In this document: piece by piece, positions 18,736 through 55,751 of the stretch
How the letters are laid out: each line of letters opens with the position of its first letter
Position numbering within the stretch: the first letter of the stretch is position 1
NCBI GenBank assembly: GCA_963712675.1
Contig: CAVQJF010000021.1
Span: 319,114 to 383,113, forward strand
Source of the DNA: an uncultured Solirubrobacteraceae bacterium
GTDB taxonomy: Bacteria > Actinomycetota > Thermoleophilia > Solirubrobacterales > Solirubrobacteraceae
Reading direction: 5' to 3'
DNA: 64,000 nucleotides
Notes under the pieces: model-generated
Told to the model about the DNA's origin: nothing
What the model saw: the letters and a program-made list of their open reading frames with translations, nothing else
The model's database searches: none
Position numbers and translations under genes: made by a program

Positions 18736-18747
18736 CGTCGTCTCCTC

Positions 18748-21125: not shown

Positions 21126-21130
21126 CGAAC

Positions 21131-21165
21131 AGAATGATACCTCATTCCGTATGAGATATCATTCC
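21131..21165. promoter_or_regulatory. Two adjacent 18-bp operators (A1, A2), each containing the TATCAT -10 of a divergent leaderless gene
   Basis: AGAATGATACCTCATTCC (21131-21148) and revcomp GGAATGATATCTCATACG (21148-21165); TATCAT sits 8 nt from ATG 21125(-) and 8 nt from ATG 21171(+). Confidence 0.85.
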
Positions 21166-21170
21166 CCTCT

Positions 21171-25223: not shown

Positions 25224-25241
25224 GGACTGATGTATCATTCC
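25224..25241. promoter_or_regulatory. 18-bp operator B in divergent promoter
   Basis: GGACTGATGTATCATTCC (revcomp GGAATGATACATCAGTCC). Confidence 0.85.
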
Positions 25242-26165: not shown

Positions 26166-27950
26166 ATGGACGTCACGACCACCGAGGAGCGATCGACCAC
26201 GCGGACGAGCACCGTCAGGCGCGCCGGCGCCGAGCTGTACGTCACCGAGTCTGGGCCCGGCGACGCCCCGACGGTTCTGTTCGTGCACGGCTTCCCGGAC
26301 ACCCACGGATGCTGGGAAGAGGTCATCGGGCTGCTCTCGGGCCGCTTCCACGTCGTCGCCTACGACATCCGCGGGATCGGTCGCTCAACAGCTCCCGATC
26401 GCAGCGAGGGGTTCGCGCTCTCGGAGCTCGCGCTTGACCTCGGCGCCGTGATCGACGCGGTCAGCCCCGACGCTCCTGTCCACCTCGTCGGACACGACTG
26501 GGGGGCGTTCCAGTGCTGGGAGGCCGTGCTGACCGACGGTGTCCGCGAGCGGGTTGCTTCGTTCACGGCCGTCGCCGGCCCGCGGATCGACGTCGCGCGC
26601 GAATGGGCGCTGCGGCGGCTCGGTACCTCGCCCCGGGGCCTTCGCGAGCTTGCCGGCCAGGCGCGGCGCTCGTGGTACATCGGGGCGTTCCAGCTTCCAT
26701 GGCTCCCCGAACGACTGCTCGGCGCCGGCGCGGCGCCGGAGCGCGGCTGGCGTCAGGCGATGCGGAGGCTCGAGGGGATCGAGCCCCGGCCGGGCCATCC
26801 GGCGCCCACGTTCGCGAGCGACGCCCGCACCGGGCTCGCGCTCTACCGGACCAACCTCCGCGGACTCGCCGGCTCGCCCAAGCGCCACGAAGGTCCGGCG
26901 CAGGTCCCGGTGCAGCTGATCGTCGCGACTCGCGACCGCTACGAATCGCCGGCGCTGTTCGCCGATGCGCAGGAGTGGGCGGCCCGCGTCTGGCGCCGGG
27001 ACGTGCGCTCGGGCCACTGGGTCCAGCGCTCGCATCCGGACCAGGTGGCGCGATTCGTCTCAGAGCTCGTCGAGCACGTCGAGGGCGCGCCGGAGACCGG
27101 TGCGCTCCGCCGCGCCCGGTACCACGGCGAGCGGGACGGGATGGGCGGTCGGCTCGCGATCGTGACCGGCGCCGGCAGCGGCATCGGTCGCGCCACCGCG
27201 CTGGCGCTCGCCGCGGAGGGCGCCGAGGTGATCGCGGCCGACATCAACCTCGAGTCGGCCAAGGAGACACTCGAGCTTGCACCGGGCGACGCGCACATGC
27301 ACGCTGTCCTGCTCGACGTCGGCGACGCCGACGCGATGGAGCAGTTCGCTGAGATGGTCGAGCGCGAGCACGGGGTGCCGTCGATCGTGGTCAACAACGC
27401 CGGGATCGGGATCGGCGGCGCGTTCCTCGATACGACGCTGGCCGACTGGGAGCGGATCATGGACGTCAACCTGTGGGGCGTGATCCACGGCTCACGGCTC
27501 TTCGCGCGGCGGATGGTCAGCGCCGGCGTTCAGGGCCACATCGTGAACATCTCCTCGGCCGCGGGGTACACGCCGTCGCGGATGCTGCCCGCCTACTCGA
27601 CGACCAAGGCCGCCGTGCTGATGCTGTCGGAGTGCATGCGCGCCGAGCTCGCGGAGGCGGGGATCGGCGTGACCGCGATCTGCCCCGGGATCGTCAACAC
27701 GAACATCACCCGCACGACGCACATGGTCGGCGTCGATCCCGAGGAGGAGCGCCGGATGCAGCAGCGGACCGCCCGCGCCTACGGCATGCGTGGCTACCCG
27801 CCGGAGAAGGTCGCCGCCGCGATCGTCGGCGCCGTCAAGCGGAATCCCGCCGTCCTGCCGGTGACGCCCGAGGCGCGCGTGATGCGGACGATGTCGCAGC
27901 TGACGCCGGGCCTGGTCCGGCGAATGGCTCGCCTCAACCCCGGGGGCTAG
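26166..27950 (+). CDS. ephD: EphD-like epoxide hydrolase (alpha/beta) + SDR fusion
   Basis: HGFPD, GHDWG (Asp nucleophile), GHW; then TGAGSGIG, NNAG, YSTTK. Confidence 0.85.
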   Translation: MDVTTTEERSTTRTSTVRRAGAELYVTESGPGDAPTVLFVHGFPDTHGCWEEVIGLLSGRFHVVAYDIRGIGRSTAPDRSEGFALSELALDLGAVIDAVSPDAPVHLVGHDWGAFQCWEAVLTDGVRERVASFTAVAGPRIDVAREWALRRLGTSPRGLRELAGQARRSWYIGAFQLPWLPERLLGAGAAPERGWRQAMRRLEGIEPRPGHPAPTFASDARTGLALYRTNLRGLAGSPKRHEGPAQVPVQLIVATRDRYESPALFADAQEWAARVWRRDVRSGHWVQRSHPDQVARFVSELVEHVEGAPETGALRRARYHGERDGMGGRLAIVTGAGSGIGRATALALAAEGAEVIAADINLESAKETLELAPGDAHMHAVLLDVGDADAMEQFAEMVEREHGVPSIVVNNAGIGIGGAFLDTTLADWERIMDVNLWGVIHGSRLFARRMVSAGVQGHIVNISSAAGYTPSRMLPAYSTTKAAVLMLSECMRAELAEAGIGVTAICPGIVNTNITRTTHMVGVDPEEERRMQQRTARAYGMRGYPPEKVAAAIVGAVKRNPAVLPVTPEARVMRTMSQLTPGLVRRMARLNPGG

Positions 27951-28741
27951 CCGCGCCCGCGCCCGCGCTCCCGCTCGCGCTCGGCGAGCAGGAACTCGAT
28001 TCCGCCTTCGACCGCCGCGGCGACCTCGGCCCGCACGCGCCGGCAGGCGACGTCGTCCTCGTGCCGTCCGGCATACGGCTCGGTTGACACCGGCGCGCCG
28101 ACCCAGAAATAGAGTCGCTCCGGGCGCGGGATCGGAGTCAGGCCGATGCCGCGCACGATCGGCAGCGGCTCGGTACCGAACAGCCGCTGCGTGAGCGCCC
28201 GGATCGGCGCCATCACCGGGCTGTCGGCGTCCAGCACGATGTCGAGGCTCTCCTCGGCGCCGACCGCGGCAAACGGAACGATCGGGTAGCCGTGCTCGAT
28301 CGCCATCCGCGCGAACCCGAGCCGCTCGGACCAGATCAGCTTGTACTTCTCGCCGCGGCGCTTGGATACCTCGCGTGCGCCGCCCGGGAAGACGAGGATC
28401 AGCTCACCCCGGCGCATCAGCTCTCCGCAGTTCGCGCGGGTGCCGCGGACGACGCCGCACGCCTTGAGCAGATCGCGGTGCGCGGGCACCCTGAAGTGCG
28501 CGTGATCGCCGAGCGAGCGCACGACGACGCCGCGACGACGCCAGATCTCGGCGACGAGGAACGGGACGTCGAGCACTCCATAGATCGTGTGGTTGCCGAC
28601 CAGCAGCGCGCCCTGCTCGGGAACGTTCTCGAGTCCGTAGAACTTCGGGCGGATCAGCTTGCGCAGCGGCGATACGAGCGCCAGCACCCGCCCGATCTCA
28701 CGGTCGCCGAGCGGCTCGGGAATCTCGACGTCGGCGGGCAC
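27947..28741 (-). CDS. Lysophospholipid/diacylglycerol acyltransferase (PlsC/DGAT2-like)
   Basis: VGNHTIYGVLD, FPGGARE, GFARMAIEHGYPIVP; GTG 6 nt after TACCGT -10. Confidence 0.87.
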   Translation of the reverse strand: MPADVEIPEPLGDREIGRVLALVSPLRKLIRPKFYGLENVPEQGALLVGNHTIYGVLDVPFLVAEIWRRRGVVVRSLGDHAHFRVPAHRDLLKACGVVRGTRANCGELMRRGELILVFPGGAREVSKRRGEKYKLIWSERLGFARMAIEHGYPIVPFAAVGAEESLDIVLDADSPVMAPIRALTQRLFGTEPLPIVRGIGLTPIPRPERLYFWVGAPVSTEPYAGRHEDDVACRRVRAEVAAAVEGGIEFLLAERERERGRGRG

Positions 28742-28763
28742 GTGCGCACGGTATCGTCCGCGC

Positions 28764-29663
28764 ATCGCCACGGTCGACCTCACCTCCCTTCGCGACAAGC
28801 GCGTCCTGATCACGGGCGCCGCGCGCGGGATCGGTGCCGCGCTGGCGGAGAGGCTCGCGTCGCATGGGGCGCGGTTGGCGCTCGTCGGGCTCGAGCCCGA
28901 AATCATGGCGGCGGTCGCAGCGCGCTGCGGCGAGGGCACGTTCGTCGCCGCGTGCGACGTGTCGAAGTTCGAGGCCGTGCAGGCCGCGATCGACGCCGCC
29001 GCCGATGCGCTCGGCGGGCTCGACGTGGTCGTCGCGAATGCCGGGATCGCGACCGGCGGCCCGCTCGCCTCGCAGGACCTGCGCTCTTGGGAGCGCGTGA
29101 TCGAGATCAACCTGCTGGGGGTGATGTACACAGACCGGGCCGCGATCCCGCACCTGCAGCGCAGTGGCGGCTACGTCCTCAACATCGCCTCGACGGCCGC
29201 CGTGTTGCGCGGGCCGGGGATGAGCGCCTATTGCGCAGCGAAGGCCGGGGTCGAGGCGCTGACCGACTGCATCCGCGTTGAGCTCAAACCGTCCGGCGTC
29301 GACGCCGGCGTCGCGTACTTCCTGTTCCTGGATACCGACATGGTGAGAGATGGGGAGCGCGAGATGCCGGGGCTCGAGCGCTCGAAGGCACGAGCTCCGC
29401 GCGCGTTCGGGCGCACGTACCCACTCCCGCCTGCTATCGACGAGGTGGTCGCGGCGATCGCGCAACGCCGCCGACGCGTGTCCTACCCCCGATGGTTCCT
29501 GCGGATCCTGCCGCTGCGCCAGCTGTTCGCCTCGGCGCTCGTCGAGCGCCAGACGGGCAAGGAAGCCGCCGAAGCACTGGCAGATTTCGACAAGCTGATC
29601 GCCGAGCGTGGCGCGGCGGCCGCTTCCGCGTCCGAGCGCACGCGCGAGCTCGCGGGCCTCTAA
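28764..29663 (+). CDS. SDR oxidoreductase (no canonical start; ATC at 28764 is the likely start position)
   Basis: TGAARGIG, NAG, YCAAK; TATCGT -10 six nt before the ATC. Confidence 0.85.
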   Translation: MATVDLTSLRDKRVLITGAARGIGAALAERLASHGARLALVGLEPEIMAAVAARCGEGTFVAACDVSKFEAVQAAIDAAADALGGLDVVVANAGIATGGPLASQDLRSWERVIEINLLGVMYTDRAAIPHLQRSGGYVLNIASTAAVLRGPGMSAYCAAKAGVEALTDCIRVELKPSGVDAGVAYFLFLDTDMVRDGEREMPGLERSKARAPRAFGRTYPLPPAIDEVVAAIAQRRRRVSYPRWFLRILPLRQLFASALVERQTGKEAAEALADFDKLIAERGAAAASASERTRELAGL

Positions 29664-30532
29664 GCGTCGTCGGCCGGAAGCTGCGCCTCGATCCGCGCGT
29701 CGTACTCGCTGCGCGCGGAACGGTCGATCGGTCCCATCGTCCGGTTCGCGTTGGTCAGCCGGCGGCCGAGCAGCCACACCGGTTCGGGTACGAACTGCAG
29801 CAGATCGAGCGTCAACGTCAGTCCGCGCGGGGTGCCGGCGAGCGCTGGCCGGCTCTTGAGGGTGCCGAGGATCGTGTCGGCCACCGACTCGGGCTTGAGG
29901 ATGAACACGCGCTCGAGCCCGAACGGCAGGAAATCGAACGGGATCCCGTCGGTGAGCTGCGTGTTCACGGCCGCCGGCATCACCGCGGTGACCGTGACGC
30001 CCGTCCCGTCCAGCTCCTCGCGGGCGCTGCGGCTGAGCGCGTTGGCGGCGTGCTTCGTGGCGCAGTACATCGCGAGGCCGGCTGCGTGGATCTTGCCGGC
30101 GGCCGAGGTGACGTTGACGATGTGTCCGCGGCCGCGCTGCACCATGCCCGGCGCGACCAGCTTGAGCCCGTGGTAGTGGGCCCAGAAGTTGACGTTCATC
30201 TGCGCTGTGCTGACGGACTCCGGTTCTTCCAGCAGCGGTCCGACGGGCATGATCCCGGCGTTGTTGACGAGCACGTCGATCGGGCCGACGTGCTCCTGTA
30301 CGGCCGCGACAAACGCCGCGTACGAGTTGCGGTCGCCGGCGTCGAGGTGGAATCCCCAGGCGCGCTCGCTGATCTCGAGCGCCGCATCGCTGGCGGCGCC
30401 GAGCTCGAGATCTCCGATCGCGACCCGGGCACCGCGAGCGGCAAACGCCTTCGCGGTCGCGAGCCCGATCCCACGCGCGCCGCCGGTGACGGCGACGACG
30501 GCCTCGTCGAGCTCGATCGGTGTTGCTTTCAT
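29660..30532 (-). CDS. SDR oxidoreductase
   Basis: TGGARGIG, NNAG, YCATK. Confidence 0.92.
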   Translation of the reverse strand: MKATPIELDEAVVAVTGGARGIGLATAKAFAARGARVAIGDLELGAASDAALEISERAWGFHLDAGDRNSYAAFVAAVQEHVGPIDVLVNNAGIMPVGPLLEEPESVSTAQMNVNFWAHYHGLKLVAPGMVQRGRGHIVNVTSAAGKIHAAGLAMYCATKHAANALSRSAREELDGTGVTVTAVMPAAVNTQLTDGIPFDFLPFGLERVFILKPESVADTILGTLKSRPALAGTPRGLTLTLDLLQFVPEPVWLLGRRLTNANRTMGPIDRSARSEYDARIEAQLPADDA

Positions 30533-30545
30533 GCCGCCCGCCGCT

Positions 30546-31604
30546 TCATCGCGGGGCGGATGCGGTCCGGGAGACGAACTCGCCGATCTCCGAAATCGCG
30601 GCGCGGGCCTCGGGGAGCAGGTCGACGCCGAGCAGCTGGAAGTCGTGCACTTGGCCCTGCCACAGCTTGACCCGCACCGGGACGCCCGCGGCGGCGAGCC
30701 GGTCGCCCAGGTTCAGCGCGTCGAGCTCGAGCACCTCGGTCGTGCCGACGTGGATCAACACCGGCGGCAGCCCGGAGAGGTCGAGGTTGACGGGGGAGAG
30801 CTGCCGATCGAGCTCGCCGCCCTTGCGGATCAGCCGCTCGACGACGAACGCCGCGGCCTTGATCGGGATCAGTGGATCCGTGCGGGCGTTGCGATGCGTG
30901 AGCTTGTCGGTCGAGTCGAGGTCGCCCCAGGGACTGATCGCGACGATCCCCGCCGGCATCGGCAGCCCTTCGGCCCGGGTCGCGTTTGCGACCAGGAACG
31001 ACAGGCCACCGCCGGCGGAGTCGCCCGCGAGCACGATCTGCGACGGCGCGATCCCATCCTCGAGCAGCTTGCGGTAGGCGGCCACCCCGTCCTCGATCGC
31101 GAGCATGATCGCCGAGCGGGGGAGCAGCCGGTAGGCGACGTTGAACACCGTCGCGTCGGCGGCGCGGCTGATCCGCGCCACCAGCCGGCGGTGCGAGGAC
31201 AGGCCGCACGCGACGTAGCCACCGCCGTGGAAGTACAGGACGTACGGGCCGCCGGGCGCGACGCCGCGGGCGCGCACGAGCTCGGCCTTGCAGGCCGGGA
31301 GGTTGACGCGCTCGATCACCGTGCCCCGCGGCGCGGGGTTGAGCGCCGCGATCGAGTCCGTCATCAGCCTGATCATCGACTCCCAGATCCGCCACATCTC
31401 GACCCCGGGCGGGCCGATCCGGATTCCGATTCCCGACAGCCAGGCGCTGAACGCGATCCACGGCCGCAGCGTGATCCGCAGGACGATCGCGAACAGGAGC
31501 GAGATCAGGCTGGGTGCGCCGCTTCGGACGATCTCGGGCGCAGGCGCCGAGGGTCGCTCAAAGGGCGGCTGTGTACTCGGTTCCGAAGCCGTTGAGGTGC
31601 TCAT
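30546..31604 (-). CDS. HSL-family esterase/lipase
   Basis: HGGGY, GDSAGG, HDFQ. Confidence 0.92.
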   Translation of the reverse strand: MSTSTASEPSTQPPFERPSAPAPEIVRSGAPSLISLLFAIVLRITLRPWIAFSAWLSGIGIRIGPPGVEMWRIWESMIRLMTDSIAALNPAPRGTVIERVNLPACKAELVRARGVAPGGPYVLYFHGGGYVACGLSSHRRLVARISRAADATVFNVAYRLLPRSAIMLAIEDGVAAYRKLLEDGIAPSQIVLAGDSAGGGLSFLVANATRAEGLPMPAGIVAISPWGDLDSTDKLTHRNARTDPLIPIKAAAFVVERLIRKGGELDRQLSPVNLDLSGLPPVLIHVGTTEVLELDALNLGDRLAAAGVPVRVKLWQGQVHDFQLLGVDLLPEARAAISEIGEFVSRTASAPR

Positions 31605-31624
31605 CCGGTCGGCGAAAAGTATAT

Positions 31625-31642
31625 TGACTGATACGTCATTCG
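31625..31642. promoter_or_regulatory. 18-bp operator C in divergent esterase/lipase promoter
   Basis: TGACTGATACGTCATTCG. Confidence 0.75.
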
Positions 31643-31682
31643 GCATTGACGTACGGGTACGTACTTAGTAGGGTTTGCGCCC

Positions 31683-33020
31683 GTGAGGCGCCGGATCACA
31701 ACCTTTGTGGGCGCGCTCGTCGTGGCCGCCGCGGCGCTCGCGGTACCCGCCGGCGCCGCGATCCCGGTTCCGAGCGCCGATCCCTTCTACGCGCCGCCGC
31801 CGTCGCTCGCGTCGTACGCGCCCGGGACGATCCTGCGCACGCGGTCGGTCCACGTGATCGGCCTGACGCAGCTCGCGTCGAACACCGCCTACCAGCTGCT
31901 CTACCGCACGACGAGCGCGACCGGACAGCCGATCGCGGCCGTGACGACGCTGCTGCTGCCGACGACGCGCACGACCGGGCCACGCCGGCTGCTGTCCTAC
32001 CAGACGGCCGAGGACAGCCTGACGCTGAAGTGCGCGCCGTCGTACACGCTCCAGACAGCGTCGGGGTCGACTCAGTCGGCCGAGTCCGGCGAGATCGCGG
32101 CCGGACTGCTGAAGGGCTGGGACGTCGCGGTCCCCGACTACGAGGGGCCACAGTCCGAATATCCCGTCGGCCCGCTCGAGGGGCGGGCCACGCTGGATGG
32201 GATCCGCGCAGTCGAACGGTTTGCGCCGGCCGGGCTATCCGGCGCGGCGACCGAGGTCGCACTGATGGGCTACTCGGGCGGCTCGATCCCGAGCATCTGG
32301 GCTGACTCGATGGCGCGCAAGTATGCGCCCGAGCTGAAGCTCGTCGGCAACGCCGTCGGCGGGATCGTCCCCGACCCGATCGAGAACCTGGTCGCGGTCA
32401 ACGGCGGCGTGTTCGCCGGCGCGATCATCGCCGTCTCGGTTGGCATCGATCGGGCCTACCCGGGGCTCGATCTCGATGCGCTGCTGAACGCGCGGGGCAG
32501 GGCGCTCGCGGCGGTGGATGGCGCCGACGGGGCCGGCTGTGCGGGCGGCGTCACGAACGCGCCGTTCGGGACGGTCGCCGACTATTCGAACTACGCGACC
32601 CCACAGCAACTCGAGGCGGCTCCGCAGGTCTCCTCAACGTTCGCGCACCTGGACCTGATCGGCGGGCCGCCGCCGGAGTCGCCGTCGTACTGGTGGAACG
32701 CGATCGGGGACGAGATCGCGATCATCAAGCCCGTCGACGAGCTGTACGCGGCCGATTGCGCGGCGGGAGCGGTGATCGACTACTACCGAAGCCCGCTCGG
32801 CGAGCACCTCACCGGCGCCGTCATCTACGCGCTGCCGGCGCTCAGCTACCTGTCCGACCGCTTCGCCGGCAAGCCCGCGCCGAACACGTGCCCGCCCAGC
32901 TCGCGCACGACCGTGGCGCAGCACGGCGCGCGCCACCATCGAACGAAGCGGCGACACCACCGTCACAAGCATCGCCGCCACCGCACGGCCCCGCGCTCGC
33001 GGCGCCACCGGCGGCGCTAA
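31683..33020 (+). CDS. Secreted LIP-family lipase with His/Arg-rich C-terminal tail
   Basis: Signal peptide, DPFY, LLSYQTAED, PDYEG, MGYSGG, GEHL; tail HGARHHRTKRRHHRHKHRRHR. Confidence 0.9.
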   Translation: MRRRITTFVGALVVAAAALAVPAGAAIPVPSADPFYAPPPSLASYAPGTILRTRSVHVIGLTQLASNTAYQLLYRTTSATGQPIAAVTTLLLPTTRTTGPRRLLSYQTAEDSLTLKCAPSYTLQTASGSTQSAESGEIAAGLLKGWDVAVPDYEGPQSEYPVGPLEGRATLDGIRAVERFAPAGLSGAATEVALMGYSGGSIPSIWADSMARKYAPELKLVGNAVGGIVPDPIENLVAVNGGVFAGAIIAVSVGIDRAYPGLDLDALLNARGRALAAVDGADGAGCAGGVTNAPFGTVADYSNYATPQQLEAAPQVSSTFAHLDLIGGPPPESPSYWWNAIGDEIAIIKPVDELYAADCAAGAVIDYYRSPLGEHLTGAVIYALPALSYLSDRFAGKPAPNTCPPSSRTTVAQHGARHHRTKRRHHRHKHRRHRTAPRSRRHRRR

Positions 33021-33243: not shown

Positions 33244-33287
33244 AGCGCCCCGAACCAGTCTCCAGAAACAGCCAGCCGGCCGGACGA

Positions 33288-35837
33288 CTAGTGCGGTTCT
33301 GACTCGAACTGCTCGGCTAGCTTGCGGCGCTGGATCTTGCCGGTCGAGGTCCGGGGCAGGCGGTCGACGAAGGCGATCTCGCGGGGGATCTTGTAGCGGG
33401 CGAGCTGGCCGCGGACGTACTCCTGGAGCTCCTCCGCGCTCGCGGTCGCGCCTTCCTTTAGTACGACCATCGCGGCGAGGCGCTGGCCGAAGTCGGGGTC
33501 GGGGACGCCGAACACGGCGGCGTCGGCGACCGCTTCGTGGGCGATCAGCGTCTCCTCGACCTCCTGGGGGAAGACGTTCTCGCCGCCGGACAGGATCATG
33601 TCGTCGTCGCGACCGTCGATGAACAGCCGCCCCGCCGAGTCGAAGTGGCCGACGTCGCCGGAGCTCATCAGACCGTCGATCACCTGCTTGGTGCCGCCGC
33701 CCGTGTACCCGTCGAAGTTGAGCGGGCCGCCGACGAAGATCCGCCCGGTCTGGCCGGCGGGCAGCTCGAGGCCCTCCTCGTCGAGGATCTTGATCGTCAC
33801 GCCGGCCATCGGGTGGCCGACGGTGCCCGGCGCGGCGCGCAGGTCGGCGGGCGTCGCGAGCGTCCCCGAGCCGACCTCGGTCGACGCGTAGCCGTTGAAG
33901 AGGATGTCGCCCCACTCGTCCATGACCGCTGTCGAGAGCTCGGGCGGCAGCGGCGCGGCCCCGGTCAGGGCCATCCGCAGCGAGGAGGTGTCGTACTTGC
34001 CGCGCACCGCCTCGGGCACGTCCATGATGCGCTTGTACATCGTCGGCACGGCCAGGATCAGCCCGACGCGGTAGCGGTCGATCTGCTCGAGCGCGGCCTC
34101 CGCGTCAAAGCGCCGTCGGATCACCATCGGCGAGCCGAGGCCAAACGCGATTCCGAATCCGATCATCCCGTAGAGGTGGAACAGCGGCGGCGCGACGAGC
34201 ACCGGTTCGCCCGAGCGCGGCGTCGGCTTCAACCGCGCGAGCTCCAGGAACCCACCGATCGCGAGCTGCGCCTGCGCGCGGGCCTTGACCGTCCGGATCG
34301 CCCCCTTCGGCGTTCCGGTCGTGCCCGAGGTCAACATGATCGCGCGGCCGCTCTCGCTCGGCAGCGGCGCGTCCTGTTCGCGGAGCGCGATCAGCGAGTC
34401 GAGCGTCGGCCGCTCGACTGACGCGTCGGGCTCGTGCCACGCCACGATCCGCGAGCCTTCGAAGCCGGACGCGCCGAACACCGGCTCGAACTCCTCGTCG
34501 TAGATCGCCGCGGTCACGCGCTCGCGCGCGAGCACGTCGCCGAGCTGTGGGCCGGCGAAGTCGGTGTTGAGCGGTACCAGATCGCAGCCAAGACGCGAGG
34601 CGGCAGCGGACGCGTGGACGAAGCCGCGGTGGTTGCGGATCATCAGCGCGACGCGCTGCGTCGCGACCACGTCGAAGTGGCGGTGAAGCGCGCCGGCGAG
34701 CGCGCGGGCCTCGTCGTCGAGCTCCGAGAACGTGATCGTGCCGAGCTCGTCGATGATCGCCGGCCTGTCTGGATGGAGCGCGGCCGCCGCGGCGACCATC
34801 GAGGCGGGCGTCGAGCCGAAGCGCTGCTGGGCGAGCAGGGCGCGGCCGAGGCGGTCGGGCCGGATCGGCCGGACGACTCCGAGCGCGGCGATCGTCGTCA
34901 GCGCTCCGACGGTCTCGCCCGCGATTCGCTGGACCGCGTTCGTCGGGGTTGGCGCCGGCGGTCGGCTCCGCGGGACGGCCCGACGAGCCTGGCGCGCGAA
35001 CGCGCGCTCGACGCCGCCCTGGGCGAGCGACGTGACCGGACCCCCGATCCGCGCCCAAATCGGCGCGATCCGCCGCGGCCGCAGCGCGACCCCGCGCGCG
35101 ACCATGCCGGCGGCCTCCTCGGTGCTCATCCCGGGGATGTAGCGCCACATGCGGAACGGGCCGAGCATCGGCGAGCGGACCAGCTGCATGTGGATCGAGG
35201 TGACGGTCACGCCGTCGACGAGGATCTCCGGCGCGGCGCCGCTGAGCCACACCTCGAACGCGCTTTTGGAGGCGATATACGCGCTCCAGCGCATCGGTGG
35301 AAAGTCGACCCCCATCGTCGCGACGTTGACGATGTGTCCCGAGCCCCGCTCGCGCATCGACGGCAGCAGCCCGAGCAGCAGCCGCACGGGACCGAGGTAG
35401 TTGACGTTGATCGTGCGCTCGAAGTCGTGGAAGCGGTCGTAGGACTGCGCGATCCAGCGTCGGATCGAGACGCCCGCGTTGTTGACGACGACGTCGACGT
35501 GGTCGTGCTGGGCCAGCACGGATTCGGCCAGCTCGGCAACGCGGTCGGTGTCGCCCATGTCGCATGGGTGCACGAAGGCGCTGCCGCCGCCGGCGACGAT
35601 CTGGTCGCGGACCGCGTCGAGCTTGTCGACCGACCTGGCGACCAGCAGCACGGTCGCGCCGGCCGCCCCGAGCCGCAGTGCGCTCGCCTCGCCGATCCCC
35701 GACGAGGCTCCCGTGATCAGCACCACCTTGCCGGCGACCTCTCGGCGCAACCGGGCGTCGCTGATCCCCGGATTCGTCGCGCCGAGCAGCAGGCGGACCG
35801 AGCGGGGGAGGATGTCCTTCGGAGCCTCGGGGGTCAT
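33288..35837 (-). CDS. Fusion of Acr1-like fatty acyl-CoA reductase SDR and long-chain acyl-CoA synthetase (FadD-like)
   Basis: TGASSGIG, SYDRFHDFERTINVNY, YIASK; then LTSGTTGTPKG, GYASTE, SGDVG, GRDDDMILSGGENVFP, TGKI in one open frame. Confidence 0.88.
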   Translation of the reverse strand: MTPEAPKDILPRSVRLLLGATNPGISDARLRREVAGKVVLITGASSGIGEASALRLGAAGATVLLVARSVDKLDAVRDQIVAGGGSAFVHPCDMGDTDRVAELAESVLAQHDHVDVVVNNAGVSIRRWIAQSYDRFHDFERTINVNYLGPVRLLLGLLPSMRERGSGHIVNVATMGVDFPPMRWSAYIASKSAFEVWLSGAAPEILVDGVTVTSIHMQLVRSPMLGPFRMWRYIPGMSTEEAAGMVARGVALRPRRIAPIWARIGGPVTSLAQGGVERAFARQARRAVPRSRPPAPTPTNAVQRIAGETVGALTTIAALGVVRPIRPDRLGRALLAQQRFGSTPASMVAAAAALHPDRPAIIDELGTITFSELDDEARALAGALHRHFDVVATQRVALMIRNHRGFVHASAAASRLGCDLVPLNTDFAGPQLGDVLARERVTAAIYDEEFEPVFGASGFEGSRIVAWHEPDASVERPTLDSLIALREQDAPLPSESGRAIMLTSGTTGTPKGAIRTVKARAQAQLAIGGFLELARLKPTPRSGEPVLVAPPLFHLYGMIGFGIAFGLGSPMVIRRRFDAEAALEQIDRYRVGLILAVPTMYKRIMDVPEAVRGKYDTSSLRMALTGAAPLPPELSTAVMDEWGDILFNGYASTEVGSGTLATPADLRAAPGTVGHPMAGVTIKILDEEGLELPAGQTGRIFVGGPLNFDGYTGGGTKQVIDGLMSSGDVGHFDSAGRLFIDGRDDDMILSGGENVFPQEVEETLIAHEAVADAAVFGVPDPDFGQRLAAMVVLKEGATASAEELQEYVRGQLARYKIPREIAFVDRLPRTSTGKIQRRKLAEQFESEPH

Positions 35838-36655
35838 TTTTTGGGGCGCATCGCGCGCTCGATCGTCGGCAGCTTGATGGCGTTCGGGACGTAGCGCCCC
35901 GCGGTCGCAAACGCGCGGACGCCCCAGCCGGGGACGACCACGCGGCGGCCCGCCTCGAGGCCCTGGACGCCGGCGCGCGCGGCCTGCTTGGCCGTGATCC
36001 ACGCGGGCCGCGGAACCGTCTTCTCGAACGAGTGACCGCCGCCGAGCTCCCACCCGGAGATCTCCCAGAAGTCGGTCTGTACGGGCCCCGGCGCGAGCGC
36101 CGTGACGGTGATCCCGCGCCCCTTGAGCTCATGGTGGAGCGCTTCGGAGAAGGTCAGGACGTAGGCCTTCGCCGCCGAGTAGCCGGCGGAGTAGGGGAGG
36201 GGCTGCATGCCCGCCGTCGACGCGATGTTAAGGATCGCGCCGCGGCGGCGCTCGGTCATCGCCGGCACGAACGCCGAGCTCAGCGCGACGACGGTCTCGA
36301 CGAGCAGGCGGACCTGCTCGAGCTCCCGCACGGGGTCGGCCTCCGCGAACGGGCCGTTGGTCGCGAAGCCCGCGTTGTTGACGAGCATCTCGACATCGAG
36401 TCCGAGCGCCGCGATCCGGCCCGGAAGCCGCCCCCGCGACGCCGCCTTTCCGAGGTCGCATGAGATCGCCTCCGCGCGGACGCCGTGATCCTCCGCGAGT
36501 TCGCCCGCGAGCTTCTCGAGCCGGTCCTTGCGGCGCGCGACGAGCACCACGTTGTGGCCGCGCGAGGCGAGCTCGCGCGCGATGCAGGCGCCGATCCCCG
36601 CCGACGCGCCGGTGACGAGAGCCGTTGAATTGGGAGAGGGGGAGGGGATGCTCAT
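35834..36655 (-). CDS. SDR oxidoreductase
   Basis: TGASAGIG, NNAG, YSAAK; ATGA coupling to the fusion gene. Confidence 0.92.
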   Translation of the reverse strand: MSIPSPSPNSTALVTGASAGIGACIARELASRGHNVVLVARRKDRLEKLAGELAEDHGVRAEAISCDLGKAASRGRLPGRIAALGLDVEMLVNNAGFATNGPFAEADPVRELEQVRLLVETVVALSSAFVPAMTERRRGAILNIASTAGMQPLPYSAGYSAAKAYVLTFSEALHHELKGRGITVTALAPGPVQTDFWEISGWELGGGHSFEKTVPRPAWITAKQAARAGVQGLEAGRRVVVPGWGVRAFATAGRYVPNAIKLPTIERAMRPKK

Positions 36656-36704: not shown

Positions 36705-36722
36705 GGAATGATACATCACTCC
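36705..36722. promoter_or_regulatory. 18-bp operator D in divergent promoter
   Basis: GGAATGATACATCACTCC. Confidence 0.85.
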
Positions 36723-36761: not shown

Positions 36762-37043
36762 GTGAGATCGATCGAGGGCACCGACGCGCGGCGTTGGGCG
36801 GCACTTGGAGGCGTCCTCGCGGGCGCGGCCGGGGCCGTGGTCGCCGTGTTCGCCGCGCGCGCGGGCTTCCGCGTGTTCCTCCGGGCGCTCCGGATCGGGC
36901 GTGGATTCGGCTGGTTCTGCTACGTCGCGGCGACGCTCCAGCTGCTCCGCCGCTGTCCGGACTGCAGGCGGCTCATCCGGCGCGACTGCCGCGTCTGCCG
37001 GCACTGCGGCTGGCGCCGCGGTCAGGCGGACGAGTCCGCGTAG
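36762..37043 (+). CDS. Small membrane protein with C-terminal zinc ribbon
   Basis: Hydrophobic segments, then CPDC..CRVCRHCG; start uncertain. Confidence 0.6.
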   Translation: MRSIEGTDARRWAALGGVLAGAAGAVVAVFAARAGFRVFLRALRIGRGFGWFCYVAATLQLLRRCPDCRRLIRRDCRVCRHCGWRRGQADESA

Positions 37044-38404
37044 AACCCGGCCTCGAGCTCGCCGAGCTCGGTCACGGGCGGCTCGCCGTACATCCACTCG
37101 CGCGCGATCCGGTGCCAGTTCGCGCTCGCATGCAGCTGACCGAGCAGCGCGAGCGTGAACAGGTCCATGCGCCGCGCGAGCGCGTGCTCGGGCGGCAGAT
37201 GCTGGTGGCGGAACTGGCGGAAGTGTTCCGAGCGTGGCATCGCCGATTCGATCAGCGCCGTCGTCGCCATCTCCGGCGTCAGCGCGATCTCCTCGTCGTC
37301 GAGGTACCAGCCGATCGCGTCGTGGACGTAGTCGAGCCAGGCCGCCGGGTCGATCCGGCCGGGGTCGGGAAAGATCCCGGCCGCAGCCATCAGCGCGTGC
37401 AGCTCCGCGGCGCGGTGCTCGGCGGCGGCGCGCTGACAGGCGAGCTCGAGCTCGACGCTCGCCGGCGCCATCCGCTTGAAAAGGCCGAAATCGAAGAACG
37501 CGACCCGGCCGTCGGGCTGCAGCAGGAAGTTGCCCGGGTGGGGATCGCCCGAGAACTCGCCGCGGCGGTAAAGCGTGCCGCAGAAGAACCTGTAGACCGC
37601 CTCGGCGACCCGGTTGCGCACGTCGTCGGGCGCCCGCTTCAACTCTTCGAAGCCGGCGCCCTCGACGTACTCCGAGACCAGCACCTGCTTGCCGCACAGC
37701 TCGATCACGACGTCCGGCACGGAGATGAACGGGTGCTCGCGGAACACGGCGGCGAACTGACGCTGGTTCTTCGCCTCCTGGACGTAGTCGAGCTCCTCGC
37801 CGACGCGGAGCCTGATCTCTCTCGCGAGCGCCTCAACATCGAGCCCCGGCATCGTCCGCTGCGCGAGCCGCAGCACGAGCGAGAGGTTCTTCATGTCGGC
37901 GCGGACCGCGGCAGCCACGCCTGGGTACTGGACCTTGACCGCGACCGTGCGGCCATCGCGCAGCTCGGCGCGGTAGACCTGGCCGATCGAGGCGACCCCG
38001 ATCGGCTCCTCGTCCAGCGAGCGGAAGATGCTCGCCCGCGGCCGGCCGAGGTCCTCCTCGAGCGCGCGCATCATCCGCGCGAACGGGACCTGGGGCGCCG
38101 AGTCGCGGAGCGCGGCGAGCTTGCGCTGGAACTCCGGCCGCGCGTCGCGCGGGACGACGCCGAGGTCGACGAACGACAGCATCTGGCCGAGCTTCATCGC
38201 CGCGCCCTTCATCGTCCCAAGCACGGTCAGGATCTGATCCGCCGTCTCGAGGTGGCGCCGCTCGAGCGCGGCGCGGCGCGCTTTCGGCGGCCGGACGACG
38301 TTCGCGGCGTGGGTGCCGGCGTGGCGCGCTGCCTCGGTCGCGGCTAGCTTGCCGACCTTCGCGGCCCGGGCGGCGCGCGAGGTCGGGATGCGCGCCTCGC
38401 CCAC
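37022..38404 (-). CDS. ABC1/AarF/UbiB family kinase
   Basis: MKLGQ, ASIGQV, VAVKVQYPG, ELDY, GDPHPGN, DFG. Confidence 0.92.
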   Translation of the reverse strand: MGEARIPTSRAARAAKVGKLAATEAARHAGTHAANVVRPPKARRAALERRHLETADQILTVLGTMKGAAMKLGQMLSFVDLGVVPRDARPEFQRKLAALRDSAPQVPFARMMRALEEDLGRPRASIFRSLDEEPIGVASIGQVYRAELRDGRTVAVKVQYPGVAAAVRADMKNLSLVLRLAQRTMPGLDVEALAREIRLRVGEELDYVQEAKNQRQFAAVFREHPFISVPDVVIELCGKQVLVSEYVEGAGFEELKRAPDDVRNRVAEAVYRFFCGTLYRRGEFSGDPHPGNFLLQPDGRVAFFDFGLFKRMAPASVELELACQRAAAEHRAAELHALMAAAGIFPDPGRIDPAAWLDYVHDAIGWYLDDEEIALTPEMATTALIESAMPRSEHFRQFRHQHLPPEHALARRMDLFTLALLGQLHASANWHRIAREWMYGEPPVTELGELEAGFYADSSA

Positions 38405-38409
38405 GGTGC

Positions 38410-39087
38410 TCAGGCTTTGATGCCGTCGCAGAGGAGGCCGATCATCGCCTCGATGTAGCGACGGCGCTCCTCGGGGCCGGCCTCGCCGCGGACGGCGGCG
38501 AACAGCGCCGGCAGCGTGAGTGAGGTGAGCATTCGGCCGACACTCGCGGTGTCGATGTCGGCGCGCAGGAAGCCCCGGTTGACGCCGTTCTGGAGGAACA
38601 CCGCGCCGAGGCCGCCGAACGTGTCGAGCAGTCCCAGCACGCGCTGGGTCATCTCCTCGTCGATCGAGGTCGCCTCCAGCAGCACCACCGATCCGAGCCC
38701 CGGATCCTCGTCGAGCAGCGCGAATAGCCGCTCCGAGATGTGGCGCAGCTGCTCGCGAAACTCGTCGATCGTGTGCGCGGGCTCGGCTGTCTCGAGCGCG
38801 AGCGTCGAGACGATGCGCTCGACGCCATAGTCGACCACCTGGTCGAGGATGTCCCGCTTGTTCTTGAAGTAGCGGTAGAACGTGCCGTGGCCGATCCCGA
38901 GCCGCTCGGCGATGTCGGCGATCCCGGAGGCGCTGTAACCGCGGGTGGAGAAGACCTCATACGCGGCCTCGATGATCTCGGTCCGGCGGCGCTCGACGAG
39001 TTCGTCGGGCGGGGGCCTGCGCCCGCGCCGGCGACCGGCCGGCGAGGCCTCAGATGACGGCGCGGTGGGCACGGAGGCGCGTTCCAT
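38410..39087 (-). CDS. TetR/AcrR family transcriptional regulator
   Basis: IIEAAYEVFSTRGY..IADIAERLGIGHGTFYRYF HTH. Confidence 0.95.
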   Translation of the reverse strand: MERASVPTAPSSEASPAGRRRGRRPPPDELVERRRTEIIEAAYEVFSTRGYSASGIADIAERLGIGHGTFYRYFKNKRDILDQVVDYGVERIVSTLALETAEPAHTIDEFREQLRHISERLFALLDEDPGLGSVVLLEATSIDEEMTQRVLGLLDTFGGLGAVFLQNGVNRGFLRADIDTASVGRMLTSLTLPALFAAVRGEAGPEERRRYIEAMIGLLCDGIKA

Positions 39088-39094
39088 GATTAAC

Positions 39095-39112
39095 GGAACG
39101 ATACGTCATGCC
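39095..39112. promoter_or_regulatory. 18-bp operator E directly upstream of tetR
   Basis: GGAACGATACGTCATGCC; preceded by CCATGATTAAC, the same context as site F. Confidence 0.75.
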
Positions 39113-40503
39113 GCCGCCGGCACTGCATCTTTTTGACCGGCACGCCAGGCGGCGGCGGCACGCCCGAGCTCGGTCGCTGGAGGCTCGCCGAACAGCCACT
39201 CGCGCGCGATCCGATGGAAGTTGACGACCGGGCGCAGCTGGCCGAGGATCGACAGCACCTGGATCTCCACCCGGCGCTGGACCATGTGCGCGGCGGGCAG
39301 CTGCTGGCCCTTGAAGATCCGGTAGATCGGCCCGCGCAGGTCGGTCGCGAACGCGGCGATCAGGTTCGTGACCTCGGGCGTCAGCTCGAGCTCGTCGTCC
39401 TCGAGGAACCAGCCCTGGGTCTGCAGCAATCCCTCGAGCAGCATCTCCTTGGGAACGCGGTCGTGGTCGAACGTCATGTTCTGCCGGGCGAAGCAGCGGA
39501 GGATCTCGTCGATGTCCTGGTTCGCGATCGCGCGCCCACCGTCAAGCTCGAGGTCCGCCGTCTCGCGGTCGATCCGCTTCAGCAGTCCGAAGTCGATGAA
39601 GCCGATCGTCCCGTCGTCGAGCAGCAGCGAGTTGCCCGGGTGGGGATCGCCGCTGAACGCCAGCAGCTCGAACGGGCCGCCGACGTAGAACCGGAAGATG
39701 ATCTCCGCAAGGCGGTTGCGGGCGTCCTGGTCAAAGCCTTCGGCTGCGGCCATCGGGCGGGCGTCGAGCCAGTCGGTCACGAGCACGGTGTCCGAGCAAA
39801 GCTCGGTGTGCACTTCGGGCACGCGGATGAACGGGTGCCCGCGGTAGTGGCGCGCGAACAGCCGGTGGTTCTGGGCCTCGAGTTCGTAGTCGAGCTCTTC
39901 GTAGACGCGCTCCTCGACCTCGGCGATGATCGAGGTGATGTCGATCCCCGGGATCACCGCCTGGGCCGGCTTCGCGAACAGCCGCAGGTTCTTGATGTCC
40001 GAGCGGACGGCCGTCGCGATCCCCGGATACTGGACCTTGACCGCGACCGCGCGACCGTCCCTGAGGCGCGCCTTGTAGACCTGCCCGATCGAGGCGGCAC
40101 CGACCGGCTCGCGATCGAACTCGGCGAACACGTTGTCGATCCGGTCGTCGAGGCCCTGCTCGATCTGGCGCTGCATCTTCCTCCAGGGGACGTTCGGCGC
40201 TCGGTCCTGAAGTGACGCCAGCTTGCGCTGGAACTCCTCGCGGTGCGAGTCCGGGATCAGCCCGAAGTCGACGATCGACAGCGACTGCCCGACCTTCATC
40301 GCCGCGCCGCGCATCGTCCCCAGCAGGGTGACGAGCTGCTCGGCGAGCTCGAGCTGGCGGCGTTCGAGCGCCGCCATCTGCTGCTCGTCGGTGCGCGCGA
40401 AGTTGGCGGCGCGCATCGCCAGGTGGCGGGCGCCCTGACCGCCGGCGACGCGCCCCATCTGAGCGATCCGCCGGGTTCTTGAGGTTGAGACTCCGCCCGC
40501 CAT
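39106..40503 (-). CDS. ABC1/AarF/UbiB family kinase
   Basis: MKVGQ, AASIGQV, VAVKVQYPG, ELDY, GDPHPGN, DFG. Confidence 0.92.
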   Translation of the reverse strand: MAGGVSTSRTRRIAQMGRVAGGQGARHLAMRAANFARTDEQQMAALERRQLELAEQLVTLLGTMRGAAMKVGQSLSIVDFGLIPDSHREEFQRKLASLQDRAPNVPWRKMQRQIEQGLDDRIDNVFAEFDREPVGAASIGQVYKARLRDGRAVAVKVQYPGIATAVRSDIKNLRLFAKPAQAVIPGIDITSIIAEVEERVYEELDYELEAQNHRLFARHYRGHPFIRVPEVHTELCSDTVLVTDWLDARPMAAAEGFDQDARNRLAEIIFRFYVGGPFELLAFSGDPHPGNSLLLDDGTIGFIDFGLLKRIDRETADLELDGGRAIANQDIDEILRCFARQNMTFDHDRVPKEMLLEGLLQTQGWFLEDDELELTPEVTNLIAAFATDLRGPIYRIFKGQQLPAAHMVQRRVEIQVLSILGQLRPVVNFHRIAREWLFGEPPATELGRAAAAWRAGQKDAVPAAA

Positions 40504-40510
40504 GATTAAC

Positions 40511-40528
40511 GGAATGATATGTCAGTCC
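40511..40528. promoter_or_regulatory. 18-bp operator F
   Basis: GGAATGATATGTCAGTCC, 7 nt from the kinase ATG. Confidence 0.85.
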
Positions 40529-42281: not shown

Positions 42282-44234
42282 ATGAGTCGAATTGACCCTC
42301 GTCGCGTACGCGCATTCGGAGCCGCGCTGGCAGGCTTGCTCGCGCTCGCCGGCGGCGCCACGGCGCTCGCCAATACCAGCGCGAAATCACACCGCCGTGG
42401 TCACCCGCACGCGCGCAAGCGGCCCAGACATCACGGCTTTGGGCGCACGACGACGCCGATCAAGCACGTGATCGTGATCATCGGCGAGAACCACACGTTC
42501 GACAACGTGTATGGGACCTATCGGCCGCCCGCCGGCCAGAGCGTGATGAACCTGCTCTCGGAGGGGATCGTGACGGCGTCCGGGGCTCCCGGACCGAACG
42601 CCGCGAAGGCCGGGCAGCAGACCGCAAGCGCCACGTCGACCTACCAGCTCAACCCGACCCGAACCGGCCCCTACGCGACGCTGCCGCAGCCGAACACGAC
42701 CTACGTGTCGTCCTCTTGCGACGGCCAGAATGGCAACCAGCCCGACACGCGGTTCCCGGGCAATCTCGCCAACGCGCCGTACCAGATCACGAAGTTCGTC
42801 CGGTACTTCGACGGTCACGCACAGTACTCGGGCACATGTGAGTACAACGGCGCGTACGTCGGCGATCCGATCCACCGCTTCTACCAGATGTACCAGCAGG
42901 TGTCCCAGGGCAAGAACGACCTGTGGACGTGGGTCCACGGAACGGCCGGCGACTCCAACGGCGCCCCGCCGCCGAGCCCATTCAACGACCAGTCGACCGA
43001 CCAGGGCGCGCTCGACATGGGCTTCTACAACATGGCCCACGGCGACGCGCCGGTGCTCGACTTCCTCGCCCAGCACTACGCGATGTCGGACAACTACCAC
43101 CAGGCGGTGATGGGCGGAACCGGGGCCAACCACATCGCGCTCGGCACGGGCTACGCCGCCTACTACCAGAACGCGACCGGCAACCCGGTCCCGCCGCCGT
43201 CAGGTGAGATCGAGAACCCGAACCCGCTGCCCGGGACCAACAACTGGTACACGCAGGACGGGTACGGCGCGAGTGGCACCACGAACGGTGGCAGCTACTC
43301 GAACTGTTCGGACCACTCCGCGGCAGGCGTCTCGGGCGTATTCGCGTACCTGAACACGCTGCCGTACGAGGTGTTCAACGACTGCGCCGCGAGTCACTAC
43401 TACCTGCTCAACAACTACAACCCCGGGTTCAACGCCGACGGCTCGCTGGATACGTCGACATTCACGGTGCCGCCGCAGGTCAACTGGCCGACGATCGGCG
43501 GGTCGCTGTCCGTGCACGACGTCAGCTGGGGCTACTTCGGGGAAGGGTTCAACGGGGGTAAGCCAACGCCCGATTACTGCGGGATCTGCGATCCGATGCA
43601 GTACTCGAGCCAGATCATGACCAACTCGGCACTGCGGGCGAACACCGAGCACGGCCTGGACGACTTCCGCTCGGATGTCGCCAACGGCACACTGCCCGCG
43701 GTCTCGTTCCTGAAGCCGGGCAACGATGATGGCCACCCGGGCTATTCGACGCTGGCCGCGTTCGAGGGGTTCGCCGACCAGGCGATCACCGAGGTCCAGG
43801 ACAACCCGCGCCTGTGGAAGAACACGGCGATCTTTGTCACGTTCGACGAGGGCGGCGGGTACTACGACTCGGGGTACATCCAGCCCGTGTCGTTCTTCGG
43901 CGACGGCACGCGCGTGCCGATGGTGGTCGTCTCGCCGTTCGCCAAGACCGGCTACATCAGCCACACCTACACCGACCACGCCTCGATCCTGAAGTTCATC
44001 GAGGCGAACTGGAAGTTGCCGGCGCTGTCGCAGTTGAGCCTCGACAACCTCCCGAACCCGACCATGACGTCGAGCAACCCGTACGTTCCGAGGAACAGGC
44101 CTGCGATCGGAGACATGATGGACTTCTTCGACTTCAAGGCCGCTCAGGCCGCACGGGCGCCGGCGCAGCTGCCGCGGATCCGCGGTGGTCAGCGAACCGG
44201 GCGCCTGATCCACATCCCGAACTCGCTGAGGTAA
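42282..44234 (+). CDS. Secreted phosphoesterase (acid phosphatase AcpA / phospholipase C family)
   Basis: Signal peptide; PIKHVIVIIGENHTFDN, MSDNYH, DGHPG, TFDEGGGYYD, DGTRVP, DHASILKFIE. Confidence 0.9.
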   Translation: MSRIDPRRVRAFGAALAGLLALAGGATALANTSAKSHRRGHPHARKRPRHHGFGRTTTPIKHVIVIIGENHTFDNVYGTYRPPAGQSVMNLLSEGIVTASGAPGPNAAKAGQQTASATSTYQLNPTRTGPYATLPQPNTTYVSSSCDGQNGNQPDTRFPGNLANAPYQITKFVRYFDGHAQYSGTCEYNGAYVGDPIHRFYQMYQQVSQGKNDLWTWVHGTAGDSNGAPPPSPFNDQSTDQGALDMGFYNMAHGDAPVLDFLAQHYAMSDNYHQAVMGGTGANHIALGTGYAAYYQNATGNPVPPPSGEIENPNPLPGTNNWYTQDGYGASGTTNGGSYSNCSDHSAAGVSGVFAYLNTLPYEVFNDCAASHYYLLNNYNPGFNADGSLDTSTFTVPPQVNWPTIGGSLSVHDVSWGYFGEGFNGGKPTPDYCGICDPMQYSSQIMTNSALRANTEHGLDDFRSDVANGTLPAVSFLKPGNDDGHPGYSTLAAFEGFADQAITEVQDNPRLWKNTAIFVTFDEGGGYYDSGYIQPVSFFGDGTRVPMVVVSPFAKTGYISHTYTDHASILKFIEANWKLPALSQLSLDNLPNPTMTSSNPYVPRNRPAIGDMMDFFDFKAAQAARAPAQLPRIRGGQRTGRLIHIPNSLR

Positions 44235-55733: not shown

Positions 55734-55751
55734 AGAATGATACGTCACTCC
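55734..55751. promoter_or_regulatory. 18-bp operator G upstream of the mce operon
   Basis: AGAATGATACGTCACTCC; contains TATCAT on the minus strand. Confidence 0.85.

Follow-up and report, generated by a model that had tools for sequence, protein, structure and literature searches.

A 64,000-nucleotide (nt) stretch of DNA from an uncultured Solirubrobacteraceae bacterium (contig CAVQJF010000021.1; this whole stretch is the window referred to below) carries, on the minus strand, a gene in which a short-chain dehydrogenase/reductase (SDR) and an acyl-coenzyme A (acyl-CoA) ligase form a single polypeptide (33288..35837). Coordinates are positions in the window throughout, and residue numbers are those of the 849-amino-acid (aa) fusion protein. 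In Pfam terms, the protein consists of an adh_short domain (residues 37–229) followed by AMP-binding (350–711) and AMP-binding_C (759–834). The fusion, which joins two known enzymes of consecutive steps, is real and rare and, judging from its sequence, probably converts fatty acids to aldehydes or alcohols with no carrier involved. No account of an SDR–ligase fusion was found in the literature searched, and the databases give the fused protein generic names only.

The initial annotation had read the locus as one frame combining an SDR with an adenylation domain, and the gene model bears this out. The frame runs over 849 codons from the N-terminus MTPEAPKD to the stop codon at 33288–33290, with no internal stop. 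A longer alternative frame begins with a GTG at 36053 and would overrun the upstream gene by 220 nt, and the alignments with homologues start near residue 8–10, and of the possible starts, the ATG at 35837 is therefore the best. The third-position GC content lies between 0.82 and 1.00 in each 40-codon block, the junction codons 281–320 included; being unbroken over the domain junction, it indicates that a single frame is used throughout. The absence of a carrier domain, also claimed at the outset, holds: at E ≤ 0.01, the Pfam scan of the 849-aa protein gives no match to PP-binding or any other carrier domain. A carrier concealed in the linker was considered and rejected, given the lack of a PP-binding match, the NCBIfam FadD12 profile that aligns from residue 308, and the small size of the sole part that lies outside the domain profiles (about 18 residues, ~290–307, with no Ser motif). 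The linker itself (residues ~288–307; 34917..34976, minus strand) is Pro/Arg-rich, flexible and poorly conserved across the alignments. In the AlphaFold2 model of the fusion, the mean predicted local distance difference test score (pLDDT) is 82.8, and residues 288–297 fall below 50, i.e. are disordered.

The fused architecture recurs. In a search space of 5.8 billion proteins, at least 119 full-length fused homologues (800–890 aa, 64–84% identical) from many independent assemblies show the same set of Pfam domains. Across the 119 homologues, there is no or almost no variation in the catalytic motifs, namely TGASSG.G,.NAG, N146, T174, Y187 and K191 in the SDR half, and TSGTTGTPKG, GYASTE, GD, GRDDDMILSGGENVFP and K834 in the ligase half. 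An exhaustive HMMER scan over 1.84 billion 50%-identity representatives yields about seven fused clusters (P0243–P0246, P0249, P0304, P0358), with the fused layout confirmed by Pfam in six out of the six that were checked (P0244–P0246, P0249, P0304, P0358). It could be argued that the fusion is an assembly artefact, caused by a missed stop or a frameshift, or else a decaying pseudogene, and two loci lend this idea some colour. At L022 (10001–12479), the frame changes from the SDR half to the ligase half and the SDR frame has no stop, with the sister locus L009 fused; this frame change may be an assembly indel error or a recent split. In Mycolicibacterium sp. (L046), a stop separates the two halves. 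Against this stand the 119 independent full-length homologues with both active sites invariant, about six further fused clusters among the 50%-identity representatives, the unbroken third-position GC content over the junction, and the presence of a fused orthologue both in a genome of the same genus and, within the order, in a different family. The homologues are, contrary to a caveat of the initial annotation, not always two genes, and the artefact reading is effectively refuted and for practical purposes ruled out, with a probability that is negligible.

In every fused form, the SDR is N-terminal, and no fusion of the reverse order (ligase then SDR) occurs among the best 150 representatives; this arrangement would suit ANL enzymes, which need a C-terminal lid that can rotate freely. 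The distribution counts are samples, with the top few candidates scored per genome, so that absence is unproven: full-length matches come from two of the 150 other genomes sampled in the order (one among seven further genomes of the genus, and one from another family) and from none of the 400 genomes sampled across the phylum. Uncultured Solirubrobacterales and a species of Nocardia are among the named carriers. The fusion is a rare accessory gene that is patchily inherited.

The C-terminal half (residues 308–849; 33291..34916, minus strand) is a FadD12-like ANL fatty acyl-CoA ligase by profile scores, structure matches and motifs. The ANL core set is complete: the P-loop (TSGTTGTPKG, 503–512), GYxxTE (GYASTE, 649–654), GD (727–728), the hinge with GGENVxP (GRDDDMILSGGENVFP, 742–757) and the catalytic A10 Lys (K834), in agreement with the intact adenylation domain noted earlier. 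Against NCBIfam, this half scores 546.7 bits with FadD12 (NF009921; cut-off 850) and 460.7 bits with FadD2 (cut-off 875), and its best solved relatives are all CoA ligases, e.g. FadD13 (3r44). By sequence, it is a FadD12/FadD2 relative of the CoA-ligase type and not a FadD12 orthologue. Elsewhere in this lineage, three FadD12-like ligases (P0255, P0259, P0307) carry an N-terminal SRPBCC (Polyketide_cyc2) lipid-binding domain in the place of the SDR; N-terminal lipid-related domains have been acquired repeatedly in the FadD12-like lineage.

The N-terminal half (residues ~25–292; 34962..35765, minus strand) is a classical SDR domain of the Acr1 type, as first proposed. The motifs TGASSGIG (42–49), A67–R68, NNAG (119–122), SxRR (124–127), YDRFHDFERT (133–142), N146–Y147, T174, Y187 and K191 are all in place, and the strings on which the original assignment was based, SYDRFHDFERTINVNY and YIASK, are found at residues 132–147 and 187–191. 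In NCBIfam, this half matches positions 361–622 of the 657 in PRK07201, i.e. the C-terminal half of that model, with 297 bits. When the SDRs of the same genome are ranked by PRK07201, the scores are sharply bimodal, with 964 bits for an FcrA-like protein, 390 for an Acr1-like one and 299 for the fused domain, compared with at most 115 for the others; likewise, over all fetched loci, a hidden Markov model built on the fused SDR domain gives at least 155 bits for Acr1-type domains and at most 94 for other SDRs. In the SDR tree, the Acr1-type domains form one clade with 100% support, and the fused domain is a separate subclade within it (support 97). Residues S124, R126, R127, D138, R141, T142 and Y147 are common to the fused, FcrA-like and FCR2-like domains and are absent in other SDRs, as are further residues of the clade: W/F184, L219–V220–R221, M224 and a two-residue insertion with R135. 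The sequence N-V-A-T-M-G raises the question of a lost catalytic Ser, and this was rejected: the hydroxyl that is invariant in the family is that of the next residue, T174, 13 residues before the Tyr, and the position preceding it varies among A, S and G. Also invariant is A67–R68 after strand beta-2, which, by general knowledge of SDRs, we take to be a mark of NADP(H) preference. No solved structure of any Acr1-type reductase was found; the best structure match is 3rkr (110 bits), and the malonyl-CoA reductase 8hjw is a weak one. On these sequence grounds, the SDR half falls in a divergent subclade of the Acr1/FCR clade. Acr1, Rv1543/FCR2, Rv3391/FCR1 and Maqu_2507 are NADPH-dependent fatty acyl-CoA reductases (PMC3522743; PMC11948995), and the fused domain would accordingly be expected to have acyl-CoA reductase activity.

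The same pair of enzymes also occurs as separate genes. In Kribbella (L099), an Acr1-type SDR is followed by the ligase with a 4-nt overlap, and in a Nocardia (L067), the two are neighbouring genes in the same order. The Mycolicibacterium locus L046 has a partner SDR, the Acr1-type SDR, a stop and then the ligase 10 nt on; it was tried as a fused form and rejected, as the stop is at 11776–11778 and the ligase gene starts at 11788. Two loci of Thermoleophilaceae/Solirubrobacterales (L066, L070) have the reverse order, ligase then SDR, with an ATGA overlap in L066, and the SDR partners at both end in ...TRGVHW, in the manner of FCR2. A ligase–SDR pair (L037), again in this reversed order, on a 2455-bp contig with 68.6% GC in a ‘Fluviicoccus’ (gammaproteobacterial) metagenome-assembled genome is doubtful as a gammaproteobacterial occurrence; the fragment is probably actinobacterial and misbinned. 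One clade of the ligase tree (support 99) comprises all fused ligases together with three adjacent ones, apart from the stand-alone FadD12-like paralogues. The ligases of L046, L066 and L070 fall outside this clade, and their SDR partners belong to another Acr1 subclade; hence, Acr1-type reductases and FadD12-like ligases have been paired independently at least twice. This repeated pairing, as far as the trees go, argues for a functional couple. At three further loci, in Skermania (L029, 8980–11442), Marmoricola and a Nocardia (L049, L063), a FadD12-like ligase is preceded by a non-Acr1 SDR that resembles a gene of the window (29660–30532). The Skermania locus was considered as a second kind of fusion and rejected, since it consists of two genes 21 nt apart with the other type of SDR. 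Within the 1.5-kb flanks of stand-alone Acr1-like genes, no adjacency of the Rv1543–Rv1544 type was seen.

Directly upstream of the fusion lies a gene for another SDR (35834..36655, minus strand; 273 aa, adh_short), a candidate fatty aldehyde reductase. Its TGA and the ATG of the fusion overlap as ATGA, and the coupling of the two genes, noticed in the initial annotation, is evident. The nearest NCBIfam model is that for mycolate reductase (246 bits versus a cut-off of 380). In L001–L005, L007 and L046, the partner again immediately precedes the pair, whether fused or split, and its orthologues form a clade in the SDR tree (support 97).

Approximately 50 nt upstream of the partner start is an operator-like 16-mer, AGTGATGTATCATTCC (36705..36720, minus strand). 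With its variants, it has five matches in the window at three or fewer mismatches, compared with 0.06 expected, and none of 100 shuffles reaches five. The other four lie between the divergent genes for an alpha/beta hydrolase and a flavin-containing/Baeyer–Villiger monooxygenase (FMO/BVMO)-like enzyme (21131–21146), a short distance ahead of the SDR gene at 25252 (25226–25241), upstream of a kinase–TetR–kinase unit (40511–40526) and near a second TetR gene (55734–55749). The presence of such sites ahead of several lipid-gene units suggests one TetR-type regulon, and the fusion operon seems, from its own copy of the site, to be part of a regulon for lipid oxidation and remodelling.

The genes around the operon fit this description in kind. 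On the far side of the fusion lie two cytochromes P450 (15911–18735), two FMO/BVMO-like flavoenzymes (18748–20289 and 21171–22784) and the alpha/beta hydrolase (20241–21125). As a group (15911–22784), these five genes are reminiscent of subterminal oxidation or of the logic of the mymA operon. Closer to the fusion are a PlsC/DAGAT-like acyltransferase (27947–29131, minus strand), two further SDRs (28659–29663, plus strand, and 29660–30532), a hormone-sensitive-lipase-type esterase (30546–31646) and a secretory lipase (31683–33020). Taken at their longest, the divergent acyltransferase and first SDR frames share 473 nt at the 5' ends, which implies that the true starts are internal. On the other side follow an ABC1 kinase, a TetR regulator (38410..39087) and a second ABC1 kinase (together 37022–40503), a P450 (40768–42180), a phospholipase C-family phosphoesterase (42282–44234) and, from 45886 onward, Mce/MlaD genes. 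The P450 neighbour is uninformative as a clue to the substrate, with distant CYP4/CYP102-like matches only. A consensus scan places a terminator-like hairpin where the fusion gene stops (33272..33291, minus strand); it is a weak candidate, the count of such hairpins being no better than in shuffles.

This setting invites a different view of the SDR half, namely that it is a hydroxy- or ketoacyl oxidoreductase that acts on a distal oxygen of an oxidised lipid, introduced, e.g., by a P450 or BVMO-like enzyme from within the regulon, and that the ligase half activates the carboxylate of the same molecule for beta-oxidation or acyl transfer. The mycobacterial mymA operon, which encodes a monooxygenase, a lipase, an SDR and FadD13, follows a similar logic. 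The operator-like 16-mer common to the P450, FMO/BVMO-like, hydrolase and SDR genes would fit such a role, as would the lipases and acyltransferase that adjoin the fusion, the conserved P450 that L001, L006 and L007 have close to the fused gene, the pairing of FadD12-like ligases with a non-Acr1 SDR in L029, L049 and L063, and the divergence of the fused SDR subclade from the characterised reductases. Nevertheless, we regard it as unlikely: the SDR half retains the Arg-rich signature of the acyl-CoA reductases, which is absent in ordinary ketoreductase SDRs, the resemblance of the split partners in L066 and L070 to FCR2 extends to the C-terminal tail, and a match of product to substrate between successive steps is a simpler account of the fusion.

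The lipases, phospholipase C-family phosphoesterase, mce genes and BVMO-like enzymes also give the locus a catabolic flavour, and this would suit a parallel funnel into acyl-CoA, in which the ligase half acts on free acids and the SDR half oxidises fatty aldehydes as a CoA-acylating dehydrogenase, so that both products of the breakdown of esters, lipids or alkanes are captured. The oxidation of an aldehyde to a thioester is, furthermore, the thermodynamically favourable direction. This arrangement appears improbable in view of the invariant A67–R68, which points to NADP(H) and suggests a reductive role, the lower frequency of fusions of parallel steps compared with sequential ones, and the fact that all characterised members of the family work reductively (PMC3522743; PMC11948995).

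The reading that we favour, and to which we assign a probability of roughly 60%, is that the fusion is a ligase and a reductase acting in sequence, which would take an acid via acyl-CoA to the aldehyde or alcohol with recycling of CoA, the partner SDR finishing the reduction. The C-terminal FadD12-like domain would adenylate a long-chain carboxylic acid and pass the acyl group to free CoA. The N-terminal Acr1-type SDR, connected through the flexible linker of about 18 residues, would then use NADPH to reduce the acyl-CoA to the fatty aldehyde, and might go on to the alcohol, as Rv1543 does; the CoA set free at this step could be used again by the ligase half. The predicted net reaction is acid + ATP + NADPH to aldehyde + AMP + PPi + NADP+, with diffusible CoA in place of a phosphopantetheinyl carrier, and the final reduction, of aldehyde to alcohol, is most likely the task of the translationally coupled partner SDR. 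If there is channelling, it would rest on proximity, and the product might end up in wax esters, via one of the seven wax ester synthase/diacylglycerol acyltransferase (WS/DGAT) enzymes of the genome, or in other lipids. What lies at the locus is plain: the architecture, intact and conserved catalytic residues, placement of both halves in their families, a conserved three-gene module and a split pair that recurs. The substrates, cofactor preference, direction, proximity channelling and fate of the product are what we infer from these. The simple explanation of the fusion is that the product of the ligase is exactly the substrate of the reductase.

Several points weigh against this interpretation. 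In the AlphaFold2 model, the predicted template modelling score is 0.61 and the interdomain geometry carries no confidence, so that physical channelling is unsupported. The fused SDR subclade is 46–49% identical to the Acr1-like and FcrA-like paralogues from the same genome, and the function of the whole subclade is deduced from sequence. It lacks the ...G(V/I)HW tail with which Rv1543 and Rv3391 end, the place of this tail being taken by the linker and the ligase; the stand-alone members of the subclade (L091, L098, L099) likewise have no such tail. The tails of the mycobacterial proteins, ...TRGIHW in Rv1543 and ...PGVHW in Rv3391, were decoded from the reverse primers printed in PMC3522743, and the Acr1-like and FcrA-like genes of the same genome as well as several relatives end in ...RGVHW or ...PGVHW. 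The anchoring of the Acr1 clade to characterised proteins is indirect, through the PRK07201 profile and these primer-decoded tails, with Acr1 and Rv1543 not in the tree. The regulon that shares the operator is rich in P450s, BVMO-like flavoenzymes, lipases and mce genes, a context that fits a catabolic as well as a biosynthetic role. The seven WS/DGAT genes all lie outside the window, and the local context gives no support to the initial proposal that the fusion feeds wax ester synthesis. The same genome encodes a full-length FcrA-type reductase (G000:C21:39674-41632; PRK07201 score 964 bits) as well as an Acr1-like reductase that stands alone and ends in ...RGVHW (G000:C5:129861-130682); with these and the WS/DGATs, it probably makes fatty alcohols and wax esters along the classical routes already.

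A bolder version of the sequential scheme holds that a captive CoA serves as a non-covalent swinging arm between the two sites, so that catalytic amounts of CoA are enough and no phosphopantetheinyl transferase is required, and that the partner SDR is the missing aldehyde reductase of the two-step Acr1 route; as a whole, we consider it decidedly unlikely. If the ligase-then-reductase scheme as such is true, it amounts to a second, simpler natural route to the ATP-driven reduction of carboxylates, with a CoA ligase and an SDR thioester reductase on one chain. Neither a carrier domain nor a phosphopantetheinyl transferase would be needed, which would give the enzyme an appeal for biocatalysis of fatty aldehydes and alcohols. 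The Acr1 pathway still lacks an identified fatty aldehyde reductase (PMC11948995), and the module of partner SDR, reductase and ligase is a place to seek it. The fused protein could also be a handle for crystallisation or cryo-electron microscopy of Acr1-type reductases, and for the organism, it would represent a lipid module of soil Solirubrobacterales that is accessory and inherited patchily.

Parts of this arrangement can be found in several known systems. In LuxCDE, LuxE and LuxC activate the acid with ATP before its reduction with NADPH to the aldehyde, much as in the chemistry proposed for the fusion, but the intermediates are acyl-proteins, the subunits are separate and the sequences are unrelated or distant. 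The bifunctional malonyl-CoA reductase (8hjw), also unrelated or distant in sequence, demonstrates that SDR modules can reduce CoA thioesters; it has no ligase. The mycobacterial ligases of the FadD12, FadD2 and FadD13 type are the best profile and structure matches to residues 308–849 and share all ANL core motifs, although the fused ligase scores well below the FadD12 and FadD2 cut-offs and forms a clade of its own (99). Stand-alone SDR reductases such as Acr1 of Acinetobacter and FCR2/Rv1543 of M. tuberculosis have the same classical SDR fold and belong to the same clade as the fused domain, with the common signature SxRR / YDRFHD.(E/Q)RT / NY / LVR(S/T)PM, the Ser/Thr–Tyr–Lys set and a beta-2 motif of the NADPH type; in contrast to them, the domain in the window is fused to a ligase, forms a subclade of its own (97) and ends without the ...G(V/I)HW tail. 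In FcrA, FCR1 (Rv3391) and Maqu_2507 (AcrB), the PRK07201 proteins, the C-terminal half is this same Acr1-type SDR, but its N-terminal partner is an extended-SDR reductase and not an ATP-dependent ligase, and these enzymes start from acyl-CoA rather than from the free acid. The carboxylic acid reductases (CARs) of adenylation–thiolation–reduction order (Nocardia Car, FadD9 of M. tuberculosis) likewise combine an ANL activator and a reductase on one chain. The fusion differs in having no PP-binding carrier, and hence no need for a phosphopantetheinyl transferase, in its reductase, which is an N-terminal adh_short SDR and not a C-terminal NAD_binding_4 domain, and in an ANL domain of the CoA-ligase type. 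Both defining features of the CARs, the carrier and the NAD_binding_4 reductase, are missing, and the fusion is not a member of the CAR family. The name carboxylic acid reductase, as first applied to this gene, fails with respect to the peptidyl carrier protein and the NAD_binding_4 domain and stands for the predicted net chemistry, which, if correctly deduced, is the same as that of the CARs.

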